Shown here piece after piece: positions 1,713-6,181 of a stretch of DNA of 7,581 nucleotides (the first letter of the stretch is position 1; each line of letters starts with the position of its first letter). The notes beneath the pieces are model-generated. The model had not been told where the DNA came from and searched no databases. It was given only the letters and a program-made list of their open reading frames with translations. Source of the DNA: a virus (Duplodnaviria > Heunggongvirae > Uroviricota > Caudoviricetes); the IMG/VR virus record IMGVR_UViG_2541047885_000010. One strand, 5' to 3'. Both the position numbers and the translations under genes were made by a program.

Positions 1713-2138
1713 AAGCTGTGTGACGAAGTAACCACTCTTAACAGCATAACCAATTTTTTACGTACGTAAACTACTAAATGATATTTGTGAGAATGCCACC
1801 GAGTGTTCAAAACACCACCACAAATGCATAAGAAAACTTCAACAAATAACCAGTTAATAATTTCCGATGTTATTTTTAGTTTGTTTAAATTAAGCTAAAG
1901 AATTATAGAGCACTTATAAATAAGTGCCATTAATATAAATTAGCTAATAGATTTATTTTTGTTCAGACAAGAGCCATGAATAGGATTAGATAGAAAAGGT
2001 TCCGATAAAAATAGAGATCTACTTCACAAATTAAATGAGAAACTAAAACTTACATCTTGAAATAATCACATTGATTAGATGAATATTTATCGCGCAGTGA
2101 CATCATTTTTTAATAATAGTTCAAAAAAAGGGCGTACA

Positions 2139-3221
2139 ATGAAAAAATTAACAGTGGCAATTTCTGCTGTAGCTGCATCAGTACTGATGGCGATGTCTGC
2201 TCAGGCAGCTGAAATTTATAATAAAGACAGTAACAAGCTGGATCTATACGGGAAAGTTAATGCCAAGCACTACTTCTCCTCTAATGATGCAGATGATGGT
2301 GATACTACTTATGCTCGTCTTGGCTTCAAAGGTGAAACCCAAATCAACGATCAACTGACTGGTTTCGGTCAGTGGGAATATGACTTCAAAGGCAACCGTG
2401 CTGAATCTCAAGGTTCTTCCAAAGACAAAACCCGTCTTGCATTTGCAGGCCTGAAATTTGGTGATTACGGCTCAATCGATTACGGTCGTAACTACGGTGT
2501 AGCATACGACATCGGTGCGTGGACTGACGTTCTGCCAGAATTCGGTGGTGATACCTGGACCCAGACAGATGTGTTCATGACTGGCCGCACTACTGGTGTT
2601 GCAACTTATCGTAACAACGACTTCTTTGGTCTGGTCGATGGCCTGAACTTTGCTGCTCAGTATCAGGGTAAAAATGACCGCACTGACGTAACTGAAGCCA
2701 ATGGTGATGGTTTCGGTTTCTCCACTACTTATGAGTATGAAGGATTCGGCGTGGGTGCAACCTATGCTAAATCAGATCGCACTGACGGTCAGGTCGCCTA
2801 TGGTAAGAGCAAATTCAATGCCTCCGGCAAAAATGCGGAAGTATGGGCTGCAGGCCTGAAATATGATGCGAACAATATCTATCTGGCTACCACATATTCT
2901 GAAACTCAGAATATGACCGTTTTTGGTAATAACCATATTGCAAACAAAGCACAAAACTTTGAAGCAGTAGCACAATATCAGTTTGACTTCGGTCTGCGCC
3001 CATCTGTTGCTTACCTTCAGTCAAAAGGTAAAGACCTTGGTGTTCATGGTGACCGAGACTTAGTCAAGTATGTCGATGTCGGTGCTACTTACTACTTTAA
3101 TAAAAACATGTCCACTTTTGTTGATTACAAAATCAACTTAATTGACGATAGTAAGTTTACCAAAACAGCTGGTATTGATACCGACGACATCGTCGCTGTA
3201 GGTCTGGTTTATCAGTTCTAA
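2139..3221 (+). CDS. nmpC: Outer-membrane general porin of the OmpC/OmpF family, NmpC / phage PA-2 Lc type (prophage cargo gene)
   Basis: ATG at 2139 preceded by aaggg. Signal peptide [23 protein letters not shown] then [17 protein letters not shown]..., [18 protein letters not shown], and C-terminal ...VAVGLVYQF with terminal Phe. Opposite orientation to Q, as for nmpC relative to quuD in DLP12. The ORF-track start at 2079 adds 20 non-signal residues and is unlikely. Confidence 0.92.
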
Positions 3222-3359: not shown

Positions 3360-3383
3360 GGGGCGTTTCCACGCCCCATTTTT
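3360..3383 (+). terminator. Rho-independent terminator on the plus strand, probably for the porin transcript
   Basis: ggggcg (3360-3365) / cgcccc (3372-3377), loop tttcca, followed by a + ttttt (3379-3383). Confidence 0.5.
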
Positions 3384-3409: not shown

Positions 3410-3793
3410 TCAATTAGAATTATTAGCAACGATATCCATATCTAACCGGATATCTAATGCCATTAACATCCCTTCAATTATGCCCTCAGCCTTCTGTAAC
3501 CTTTTCCCGATATAACCATCCGAGCAGCAATGCTTACTTGCCAGTGACATGAATGTCATACCACATACATAATAATCTACTAATAAATCGTGTAAATCGC
3601 TGTTGTTCTTTTTCAGACGGGCCATGCACCCGCAAATGATCATCGCGTCATCGTCACAACATTGCGGGCGAGATTTTACTTTTGAAGGAATTAATCCCTT
3701 AAAACCGGCAGCAATGGACGACCAGGTCACATCCTCATGATTATTTGCCGCCCATGCCCCCCAGCGTTCAAGAACCATCTGAATATCACGCAT
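3410..3793 (-). CDS. Late-gene antiterminator Q, phage 82 / QuuD type
   Basis: 127 aa from the ATG at 3793, with GGAG 7 nt upstream. Begins [26 protein letters not shown]... and has Cys-rich motifs (PQCCDD, CGC, HCC). Matches my recollection of the DLP12 QuuD family. The ORF-track start at 3808 is a TTG and less likely. Confidence 0.85.
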
Positions 3794-3810: not shown

Positions 3811-4806
3811 TCAGGACAGCACACCAATCGCCAGTGCGCGATCGATAAAACGAAATATCAGCTCCAGTTGGGAACCATACTTCTCTTCAAATGCCACGGT
3901 ATCCACATGCAGTTCGTCATGGTGTTTTCTGCACAAAGGCAACACAAAGAGATCATGCGCTTTTGTCCCCATACCACCCTGGCCGTGACCAATCAGATGA
4001 TGCGGATCATCAGCTGGCTTTCCACAACATGCACACGGCTGCGTCTTAACCCAGCGAGTGTACTTTTCATTAACCCAGCGACGACGTTTGGGGCGTAACA
4101 TAAAAGACTCCGGCGACTCCGGATCCACTTTCAGCGCCAGCACCTTTTTCGCTTTATCCCGGATAATACTGGTGGCAGTAACCGAAGGTACAAGGTCACT
4201 CTCCCGGGTGACAGACGGCAAAACAGGCTTCGGTAATCTCAGGGCCTTACGGGCTGCACTTTCCGGCAAGGCATCCGCCAGGTCATTACGAACCAGCCAC
4301 CAGCACAGTTCCGGCATTGTCACAACGTGACTGTCATCAAAACCGAGATCCCGACGCACGACAGACAACACCCAGCGGGCACAGTTATCCGTTGCCATTG
4401 ATTCCAGCCGTTCCGTGAACTGGTCACGCAGCTGGTTATCACAGTGCCAGCACAGACGGATTGCGCCCGGAGCGTGCCGCATTGTGGTCATGTTCTCGCT
4501 GTGCCAGTCGGAATGAGGCCACTGACAGCCCTTTTCACGAAGTAACCAGCTTTCAAGACATTCCACGCCACCAGCACGACGGATCACTGCCTCATTGCGG
4601 AACACGGCCCGAACGGCAGGATCATCCGCCAGCGGTTGTGATGCCGCCGGAACGGCACCACTGGCGAAAGATGAATAACGTTCCGGCTCAGGCTCCAGCA
4701 GGACACGCCCCTGCATAAACAGGGGCATCAGCTCTGAACCGGGCCTGAACAATACGATCCCCATACGCGGGGCAATTTCAGGGGTCAGTAGTGCTCTCAC
4801 GGTCAC
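3811..4806 (-). CDS. DUF968 (YdfU-like) nin-region protein with a C-terminal HNH-type nuclease / zinc-finger motif
   Basis: 331-aa ORF with GTG start at 4806 (alternative GTG at 4800 with GAGGTG upstream). C-terminus carries [43 protein letters not shown], i.e. CxCC...D-x-HH...LC..HH..H. Stop at 3811 lies 4 nt before the Q ribosome-binding site. Confidence 0.7.
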
Positions 4807-4807
4807 C

Positions 4808-5623
4808 TCAATGAACGGTATCGAGCAGCTTTAACAGCTCAGGGAATCGGGATTCGAAGAAATGCGGCTGCGTCTCGCGCGGATTTGCAGGACTGGTGAT
4901 GTTCTTGCCGAACATGCAGCCTTTCGCTGTCAGCGACCAGAATTTTTTGATGTTGTTAATCGCGGTACGGCTGTATCGTTCGCGTTGTTCAACGATCCCC
5001 AGCTTCGCCATCTGGTGATATGCCTGATTAGCCGTCAGGCGGATACCATACTGCTTCAGCAGTGCACTCAGCGACAGCGTAGGGCGGCTTGAACCATCTG
5101 GCGCATCAGCAGGTGCATCAATGGCATAGATCGGCATAAGTTCAGGAAGACCAGCTACCTTTGATAATTTCTGGTATGCACCAAGTTTCGAGGAGTTTGA
5201 CAGATTTAGAGTCTTTGCTGCTGATTCAAGCAGAATGACCCCGGATTTAATTTTGTCGGATGTGGTTTCTTCTGGTGATGAATTATGAAGCGCATCAAAA
5301 GTACGTATCACTTTTAAGCTGAATGCCGGGCTGATCCACATTGCATATGCATAGACCAGCTCTTTACAGACATACGTCCCACCATTGCGCCCCTGAATGG
5401 TGATGACAGGAATACTACGGGAATCTCCCGTAGTTTCTTCTTCCAATAATTCCACAAGAGCCTTCGTTTCAGGACGACGCATAAACTCGTGAACTTCCAG
5501 CGAACGGGAGGAGCGATTCTCACCAGCGGCAAGAAGAGCAGCTTTCTGAAGGTCGTTAAGACAGTAGTTAGATTCGAAGTACTGGCGCACAGAAACGCCA
5601 TCAATTACAAGCAACTGATTCAT
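4808..5623 (-). CDS. KilA-N domain protein (antirepressor-like / Roi-like DNA-binding protein)
   Basis: ATG at 5623 with GGAG 8 nt upstream (the ORF-track start at 5635 is a GTG). N-terminal MNQLLVIDGVSVRQ...GGTYVCKELVYAYAMWISPAFSLKVIRTFDAL is KilA-N/APSES-like. Stop TGA is 1 nt from the DUF968 start, suggesting co-translation. Confidence 0.7.
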   Translation of the reverse strand: MNQLLVIDGVSVRQYFESNYCLNDLQKAALLAAGENRSSRSLEVHEFMRRPETKALVELLEEETTGDSRSIPVITIQGRNGGTYVCKELVYAYAMWISPAFSLKVIRTFDALHNSSPEETTSDKIKSGVILLESAAKTLNLSNSSKLGAYQKLSKVAGLPELMPIYAIDAPADAPDGSSRPTLSLSALLKQYGIRLTANQAYHQMAKLGIVEQRERYSRTAINNIKKFWSLTAKGCMFGKNITSPANPRETQPHFFESRFPELLKLLDTVH

Positions 5624-5686
5624 TGGTTTCTCCACAAATTTTTATCCACGAGCGGGACTGCACTCCCTTTTCGTTGATGCAGGATG

Positions 5687-5715
5687 AACTTACTGCGATT
5701 TTTAATAGTTATCAA
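5687..5715 (-). promoter_or_regulatory. Candidate sigma-70 promoter for the kilA-N / DUF968 / Q block
   Basis: On the minus strand: -35 TTGATA (5710-5715), 17-nt spacer, -10 TAAGTT (5687-5692). An alternative upstream pair is -35 TTGAGC (5775-5780) and -10 GTATTA (5753-5758). Sequence-only prediction. Confidence 0.3.
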
Positions 5716-5720
5716 GGATA

Positions 5721-5740
5721 CACTGTTCATAAATACAGTA
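5721..5740. promoter_or_regulatory. SOS box (LexA operator), CTGT-N8-ACAG
   Basis: cactgttcataaatacagta: CTGT at 5723-5726, 8-nt AT-rich spacer, ACAG at 5735-5738. 16 of 20 positions match the E. coli consensus TACTGTATATATATACAGTA, with all invariant positions conserved. Sits in the 161-nt gap between rusA and kilA-N. Confidence 0.6.
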
Positions 5741-5785
5741 TCTTTAACGAGGTAATACCCAAATTTAGGGTGTTGCTCAATTCCG

Positions 5786-6181
5786 TTACCGAGTTGCTAA
5801 TTTGCAACTCGCTTTTTCGTACTTACTGATAGTGATCTCGACCTTCCCTTCCGGGATAACCGGTCCCCACTCCACCAGCATTCTTTTCACCTGGCTGTCG
5901 TCTTCCCACACACCCGCGTGGGTCAGGGCGTCAAACAGCGCCTTGTTATAGTTGTCCAGATCGCGGATCCGGTTATCCGGAGGAAACAACACGATCTCCA
6001 CTGAAGCAGGTGCCGACGTTGGTTTCGGCAGACGACGTAACTGCTCAACTATTGCTGCACACGCCGCGCTCTGGAATTTTCGCCCCGCCGCGCTTATCAG
6101 GCTCTTACCAGCAAACGCCCCTTTGTTGGGGTGTCGCCAGTACGTGTTCACGCTGGGCGGAAAAGGCAGTATTAGCTTCAT
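5786..6181 (-). CDS. rusA: RusA-family Holliday junction resolvase
   Basis: N-terminal ...LPFPPSVNTYWRH... and DNRIRDLDNYNKALFDALTHAGVWEDDSQV match the RusA family (LPWPPSNNRYYRH..., [28 protein letters not shown]). ATG overlaps the upstream stop as ATGA. About 10 aa longer at the C-terminus than E. coli RusA. Confidence 0.85.
   Translation of the reverse strand: MKLILPFPPSVNTYWRHPNKGAFAGKSLISAAGRKFQSAACAAIVEQLRRLPKPTSAPASVEIVLFPPDNRIRDLDNYNKALFDALTHAGVWEDDSQVKRMLVEWGPVIPEGKVEITISKYEKASCKLATR

Follow-up and report, generated by a model that had tools for sequence, protein, structure and literature searches.

The window analyzed here, a stretch of 7,581 nt (7.6 kb), is part of an E. coli lambdoid prophage. 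Three complete chromosomes match it at 99.6% identity over its full length, and the AR_0017 prophage, which adjoins mlrA, extends from the integrase to the tail genes. The 601 nt surrounding the LexA-like box described below are 100% identical in many E. coli chromosomes. At least 80% of this stretch is present in 186 of 5,426 complete E. coli genomes (~3%), and the inducible, serotype-converting Shigella phage SfIV carries it at 99.6% identity.

Genes of the minus-strand train

The minus strand encodes a train of genes in the order PerC, Dam methylase, a truncated LexA homologue, RusA, KilA-N, DUF968 and the late-gene antiterminator Q (Table 1). Neighboring genes overlap or lie 7–17 nt apart, except for RusA and KilA-N, which are separated by 162 nt (5624–5785). 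As a sequence-only reading of this DNA had stated, this is the only sizeable intergenic gap of the train. The gene order RusA, KilA-N, DUF968, (Q) is repeated across Enterobacterales.

Table 1. Coordinates of the genes and of the predicted control elements in the window.
Feature	Position	Strand	Remarks
Truncated LexA homologue, 108 aa	6178–6504	−	Pfam LexA_DNA_bind, E = 3e-19; no S24 cleavage domain
RusA Holliday-junction resolvase	5786–6181	−	Pfam RusA, E = 6e-15; last upstream early-operon gene before the gap
LexA operator (SOS box), candidate	5721–5740		16/20 to consensus; 21.6 bits; heterology index ~4.8
−35 hexamer TTGATA of P_kilA	5710–5715	−	Top sigma-70 matrix match in the gap, 11.6 bits
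−10 hexamer TAAGTT of P_kilA	5687–5692	−	Position conserved in relatives; predicted start near G5680
Leader (5' UTR) hairpin	5644–5678	−	Stem GGGA/TCCC, 5664–5667 and 5654–5657; loop GTGCAG, 5658–5663
Shine-Dalgarno GGAG of kilA-N	5630–5633	−	Inside the conserved GTGGAGA
KilA-N domain protein, 271 aa	4808–5623	−	Pfam KilA-N, E = 1e-15, residues 14–118; start as in RefSeq
DUF968 protein (Orf/NinB-like N-terminal part and HNH/His-Me finger)	3811–4800	−	Pfam DUF968, E = 2.5e-80
Late-gene antiterminator Q (annotated QuuD)	3410–3793	−	Pfam Phage_antitermQ, E = 8e-54

The KilA-N protein has a strongly conserved C-terminal half that belongs to no family. No NCBIfam family was found for the protein, and its AlphaFold model (pLDDT 73) gave no PDB fold match at E ≤ 0.001, only weak APSES/winged-helix resemblances. 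The DUF968 protein shows a sub-threshold HNHc_6 match (26.2 bits against a cut-off of 26.6 bits) and falls into PHROG 96, 'HNH endonuclease'. PMC4118853 portrays DUF968 proteins as fusions of an Orf/NinB-like domain with an HNH nuclease motif, and the papers found on DUF968/ydfU give family-level descriptions only. Judged by its domains, the DUF968 protein, together with RusA, points to a DNA-metabolism flavor of the block. A reading of the block as a defense system was rejected: PADLOC/NCBIfam returned only a partial match of the KilA-N domain to the candidate defense protein PDC-S22 and none for DUF968.

The kilA-N and DUF968 genes are 7 nt apart and DUF968 and Q 17 nt apart, and no convincing minus-strand terminator was found between 5620 and 3410. 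Because the genes are so tightly packed and no credible terminator intervenes, a transcript started in the gap upstream of kilA-N should reach Q, which agrees with the earlier proposal that the promoter of this block feeds into Q.

Beyond Q, cargo genes occupy the region before the lysis genes (441–869, 1148–1309 and 2079–3221). They comprise an OmpC-like porin gene that is convergent with Q and has its terminator at 3360–3377, a lipoprotein with a TolA C-terminal domain, a tRNA-Arg(TCG) and a tRNA with a CAT anticodon, called Met by ARAGORN and Ile in RefSeq.

Two genes upstream of kilA-N, the 108-aa protein consists of a LexA winged-helix DNA-binding domain and a short helical tail. It aligns without gaps to residues 2–69 of E. 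coli LexA (E = 7e-16), and most residues of the recognition helix are kept (RSVNAAVEHL versus RSPNAAEEHL in LexA). The Dam methylase gene farther upstream carries a 1-nt deletion at about 6766 relative to the 99.6% identical AR_0017 copy, which splits its 217-aa frame and is either a pseudogene mutation or a sequencing error. This deletion accounts for an odd 316-aa ORF overlapping the gene of the LexA homologue.

LexA box, promoter and leader in the intergenic gap

LexA operators have been described as 20-bp palindromes, TACTG(TA)5CAGTA, with CTG and CAG 10 bp apart, and scanning prophage promoter regions for boxes of low heterology index (HI) is an established approach (PMC12527982). In the gap, the 20-mer at 5721–5740 reads CACTGTTCATAAATACAGTA on the plus strand and TACTGTATTTATGAACAGTG on the strand of the genes. 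The latter matches the LexA consensus TACTGTATATATATACAGTA at 16 of 20 positions, with both the CTGT and ACAG arms intact. The SOS box of the sequence-only reading (CTGT-N8-ACAG, 16/20) is thus borne out, as is its placement about 100 nt upstream of the KilA-N gene, the box centre lying 107 nt upstream of the annotated kilA-N ATG (5623). CTGT-N8-ACAG occurs only once in the window, at 5723–5738. With 0.16 occurrences expected per window and at least one in 15% of shuffles, this bare eight-base motif carries little weight by itself, in contrast to the full 20-mer.

The 20-mer was scored with a symmetrised LexA matrix made from an uncurated list of 32 E. coli boxes and not from a downloaded table. 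It reached 21.6 bits with an HI of ~4.8, ranking between uvrA and recA in this list. With the same matrix, recA scored 22.9 bits (HI 4.6), uvrA 21.5 bits (HI 5.6) and polB 11.9 bits (HI 9.2); the HI of the box is like those of recA and sulA, and both its score and its HI fall in the upper half of the listed E. coli sites. The second-best site in the window scored 8.7 bits. From the exact score distribution, 3e-4 sites of this quality are expected per window and 2e-5 in the intergenic gap. By its sequence, 5721–5740 is a genuine LexA box of the E. coli type, far beyond chance expectation.

A scan of two prophage loci for further boxes, a step also suggested by the sequence-only reading, returned this box as the only strong LexA site in the 24.6 kb examined of the 2012EL-2448 prophage (L001) and as one of two in the 39.6-kb AR_0017 locus (L052). 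The other site in AR_0017 (L052:27404–27423, outside the window) belongs to a group of boxes of 23–27 bits, e.g., TACTGTATGTAAAAACAGTA, lying inside the S24-type cI gene, ~210 nt from its start. Such cI-internal boxes were also found at L011:270 and L014:371 and are conserved in E. coli, Shigella and Citrobacter prophages of this immunity type. Another strong box (18–22 bits) lies downstream of Q in four loci (L006:7156, L021:6951, L042:6460 and L050:7890). In the first three, the box extends over the opening codons of a DNA methyltransferase gene (MKNTVKINS...); beside the L050 box, no ORF of at least 60 aa was found. Of this methyltransferase family, a truncated C-terminal (3') fragment is all that is left in the window, at 1350–1688. 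LexA boxes are thus recurrent in these prophages.

The −35 and −10 candidates noticed earlier beside the box correspond to TTGATA (5715–5710) and TAAGTT (5692–5687) with a 17-nt spacer, a predicted promoter referred to here as P_kilA, from which we infer a transcription start near G5680. Relative to this start, the box spans about −41 to −60 with its centre at about −50.5, and 5 nt separate it from the predicted −35 downstream. It shares the CTGT-N8-ACAG palindrome and the AT-rich centre with the chromosomal SOS boxes of recA, sulA, umuDC and uvrA, but those boxes usually overlap the −35, the −10 or the start. The promoter score is modest, 11.6 bits being about the 95th percentile of shuffles, and a generic 9/12 consensus scan, which returned no promoter in the gap, missed P_kilA.

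Comparison with relatives adds to this picture. Fifty Enterobacterales loci were fetched, with KilA-N homologues at 45–69% identity. In at least eight diverged loci (Atlantibacter, Leclercia, Enterobacter, Superficieibacter, Raoultella, Kluyvera, Phytobacter and Citrobacter), the top promoter match falls at the P_kilA position, with the −10 ending 58–64 nt before the ATG. In six of these promoters, a clear −35 (TTGAAx) is followed after 17 nt by a −10 of the form TAAnGT or TAATnT; those of Phytobacter (TTGCAG/TAGTGT) and Citrobacter (ATGCAA/TAAAAT) are weaker. The −35 reads TTGAAA, TTGAAG, TTGAAT or TTGCAG in all of these genera except Citrobacter, and the −10 variants in relatives are TAAGGT, TAATGT, TAATCT or TAGTGT. 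The sequence flanking the conserved promoter is otherwise scrambled. The alignments show GTGGAGA to be nearly invariant 6–7 nt before the kilA-N ATG. Sequence conservation thus supports the view that the box belongs to a conserved predicted promoter, although the promoter score alone would be unconvincing.

Two other arrangements were considered and rejected. The box might have served a promoter, or an antisense sRNA, on the plus strand, but the highest sigma-70 score there (8.0) was below the shuffle median of 8.3. An upstream minus-strand candidate, TTGAGC-17-TATTAC, would place the box at +4 to +24; it scored 7.0, lacks the final T and sits in a 45-nt stretch unique to this allele. On the plus strand, antisense to the gene train, a terminator-like hairpin followed by CTTTTTCG lies at 5790–5811 within the 3' end of rusA. 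As the search for a promoter on this strand found none nearby, the hairpin is left uninterpreted; the surrounding 45 nt are, again, unique to this allele.

The predicted leader of kilA-N contains a hairpin that ends ~20–29 nt before the ATG and recurs in genera from E. coli to Gilliamella. In 26 diverged sequences, the TGCAG of its loop, (G/T)TGCAG, is invariant and all five stem pairs show compensatory changes. Its covariation score of 0.652 compares with 0.229 in shuffles, none of 500 of which reached 0.652, and slid registers scored lower. Such hairpins cluster 35–110 nt upstream of kilA-N, with 14 there and 4 elsewhere in 347 kb. Since the window's own leader hairpin is not unusually stable (z = −0.87), it is covariation, and not stability, that argues for the structure. 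A permissive Rfam scan of 5400–6000 on both strands gave no match.

Loci lacking promoter or box still have the hairpin, which there overlaps the stop codon of rusA; in Pantoea-type leaders, it occurs as a tandem pair. In Proteus, Morganella and Providencia, a hairpin at the same place carries the loops UGUACGG, UAUACGG or AUGCGG. A nut-like reading of the element, which would call for copies behind both the early-left and the early-right promoter, was discarded, as extra copies occurred only at chance level in the 24.6- and 39.6-kb prophage loci and in 347 kb from related loci.

Some 17–19 nt upstream of the loop motif, around the predicted start (5675–5682 in the window), a second (G)TGCA(A/G) motif was noticed. 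It is present in most loci of the gap type, and Serratia and Rahnella have three copies. The repeat could serve to bind a protein, or it could pair with the UGCA core of the loop, which is self-complementary. In L054 and seven other IMG/VR loci, the leader has an 11-nt deletion (CTCGTGGATAA) directly downstream of the core hairpin, equivalent to about 5642–5652 of the window. The outer stem is lost in this allele, but box, promoter, core hairpin and Shine-Dalgarno sequence are all retained.

Conservation and placement of the box in Enterobacterales

A LexA-like box of at least 10 bits was found in 17 of ~22 distinct homologous upstream regions from other Enterobacterales (0.2 expected), and one of at least 13 bits in 12 of them (0.05 expected). 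Its position within the promoter differs among these genera. In promoters of the window type, the box stays just upstream of the −35, and its left arm is often degraded (GTGGAT), with scores of 11–15 bits. In Serratia, Erwinia and Edwardsiella, it overlaps the −10 and the start; in Buttiauxella, it covers the −35 and the spacer, and in Pantoea and Rosenbergiella the −35. LexA boxes that repress are usually placed over the −10 or the −35. Without selection, it would be difficult to account for a box that recurs at differing places of one promoter; on this sequence comparison, LexA control of the kilA-N operon looks selected.

Some features of the window allele count against LexA repression. Its box lies upstream of the −35, not over the core promoter or the start, and in Salmonella, boxes farther from the start have shown weaker LexA dependence (PMC8072944). 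Several relatives with the same geometry have the degraded left half-sites of only 11–15 bits mentioned above. These features suit a site to which LexA binds without regulatory consequence, a neutral or decaying relic or a weak roadblock, with the block expressed essentially by early-right readthrough only. Within E. coli, all 47 viral contigs with a 99–100% identical kilA-N share the upstream region; one of them has a disrupted box, in which a change from ACAG to AGAG lowers the score to 13.6 bits. The remaining 46 copies, however, keep the box intact. SfIV, which differs from the window in a single position of 241 nt (5721, C to T), has a box even closer to consensus, at 23.7 bits. With the recurrence of boxes at different promoter positions across genera, this makes an inert site quite improbable.

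Proposed LexA control of the kilA-N, DUF968 and Q genes

We propose that kilA-N, DUF968 and Q are probably under direct host LexA control through the internal promoter P_kilA. LexA binding, repression from this position and an effect on Q and the late genes are what we infer from the arrangement of these elements. P_kilA would lie inside the delayed-early (nin-type) region of a lambdoid prophage and carry a host LexA operator. As long as the lysogen suffers no damage, LexA would occupy about −41 to −60, next to the −35, and keep P_kilA low. DNA damage would then lead to RecA-stimulated LexA cleavage and free the promoter, and the transcript from near 5680 would comprise the structured leader, kilA-N, DUF968 and Q. 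This would provide a damage-triggered, CI-independent route to three genes including the late-gene switch, parallel to the early-right (pR-type) readthrough that would follow once the self-cleaving CI is gone.

In lambda, the nin region and Q are expressed by N-antiterminated readthrough from pR, and that phage is not known to have a LexA-controlled internal promoter feeding Q. The present locus resembles the nin region in that recombination genes (Orf-like and resolvase) are followed by Q, all running in one direction from the early-right operon (PMC4118853). It differs in the conserved SOS-box promoter predicted between rusA and kilA-N.

The closest analogy for such a promoter comes from the Gifsy prophages, in which LexA boxes downstream of the replication genes control operons of dinI and an antirepressor (Lemire, Figueroa-Bossi and Bossi 2011, PMC3121763). 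As in the lambdoid prophages Gifsy-1, -2 and -3, a box for host LexA here accompanies an internal promoter that lies past the replication genes and does not belong to the immunity region, a position from which prophage genes in Gifsy respond directly to LexA cleavage. The operons themselves differ, comprising a DinI homologue and a small antirepressor in Gifsy but kilA-N, DUF968 and Q here. Terminator-like palindromes precede the Gifsy boxes, whereas no sense-strand terminator was found before this one. The Gifsy repressors are not cleaved, whereas the repressor here has an S24 domain.

The sequence-only reading had envisaged a LexA-gated antirepressor circuit feeding into Q, in which the KilA-N protein would inactivate the prophage repressor and provide the route of SOS induction, as in Gifsy or coliphage 186. 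The predicted LexA-type operator, its promoter and a transcript reaching Q are supported by the sequence and by comparison with relatives; the antirepressor is not. What speaks for it is that promoter and LexA box occupy roughly the place of the LexA-controlled locus in Gifsy (PMC3121763) and that KilA-N is a DNA-binding and regulatory domain, the protein falling into PHROG 129, 'transcriptional regulator'. However, in two prophages with this module (loci L052 and L001), the CI-type repressor contains a Peptidase_S24 autocleavage domain (E = 6e-19 and 4e-25, respectively). This evidence comes from relatives that are 99.6–100% identical, the immunity region being outside the window. Since a CI of the S24 type can be inactivated directly by RecA, SOS induction needs no antirepressor.

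The protein and its genomic neighborhood likewise argue against such a function. Pfam assigns KilA-N only (E ≤ 0.01), and searches for ANT, Bro-N and AntA domains, an NCBIfam family or a related fold gave no match. At least 12 of the 50 genomic loci have kilA-N ~25–45 nt behind rusA and lack a box within 400 nt, and most alleles of 68–70% identity among the IMG/VR contigs are likewise closely spaced and boxless. Such loci leave no intergenic room for a promoter. There, kilA-N would be transcribed with the early operon that the repressor controls, and an antirepressor made in this way would serve no purpose. The gene is also always paired with the Orf-like/HNH gene of the DUF968 family next to RusA, which points to DNA metabolism. 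An antirepressor role of the KilA-N protein is therefore highly improbable, and the analogy with Gifsy holds well for the control element but does not extend to the protein.

A further candidate for binding at the box is the phage-encoded LexA homologue, whose gene adjoins rusA in 12 of the 50 genomic loci with a variable recognition helix. The box could mainly, or also, be its operator, with host LexA competing for the site; the homologue would then activate P_kilA or, as a non-cleavable repressor, shut P_kilA and host SOS genes again after the onset of early gene expression. The centre of the box at about −50.5, upstream of the −35, would suit an activator better than a classical repressor, and the gene was detected next to rusA in 8 of 10 aligned loci of the window type. 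A precedent is found in GIL01, a tectivirus of Bacillus thuringiensis, in which host LexA together with gp7 represses the late promoter P3 and gp6, a truncated LexA homologue, activates it from a site at −43.5 (Fornelos et al. 2018, PMC6182141). Besides gp6, no functional study of truncated LexA homologues was found in the literature.

The likeness to GIL01 extends to host LexA boxes at a promoter that leads, here by prediction, to late genes, to a site at or upstream of the −35, from which the GIL01 activator acts, and to the truncated phage LexA homologue, here 108 aa without a cleavage domain. Yet GIL01 is another type of phage in another host, its P3 drives the late genes directly whereas the promoter here would drive the antiterminator Q, and no analogue of gp7 was identified at this locus. 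Moreover, gp6 binds a palindrome of its own, distinct from the LexA box.

The compared loci give little encouragement to a role of the homologue at the box. Recognition helix and box did not co-vary across them; Atlantibacter and Leclercia have an identical box and different helices (RSPNAANDQL versus RSHNSARDTL). The gene was found in L010, L011 and L014, whose kilA-N has no box or promoter, and it was not detected within 4 kb upstream in the box-bearing loci of Serratia, Rahnella, Pantoea and Erwinia. We therefore consider it rather unlikely that the box serves mainly or additionally as an operator of the phage protein.

The two proteins might also act on one box in succession, a combination that we regard as unlikely. 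Cleavable host LexA would hold P_kilA off, and the early, non-cleavable phage protein would boost or re-close P_kilA, possibly along with host SOS genes, so that two LexA-family proteins would time the late switch while the leader hairpin adds an RNA-level checkpoint. If true, this scheme would be a Gram-negative counterpart of the LexA/gp6 system of GIL01, connected to the late genes that depend on Q, among them the toxin genes in related Stx phages.

A search of the literature found no description of this site and no binding, expression or start-site data for it, and the box adds to the known LexA-regulated prophage promoters. The module also offers a simple system for asking what role phage-encoded, non-cleavable LexA homologues play in enterobacteria. 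Under the preferred reading of direct control by host LexA, a gated promoter feeding Q would give the late genes, here the lysis and virion genes and the cargo downstream of Q, a damage-triggered input that bypasses CI and the early cascade. If so, it would affect the speed and the SOS level at which such prophages kill their host, as well as the response of defective prophages without an early region to DNA-damaging antibiotics.
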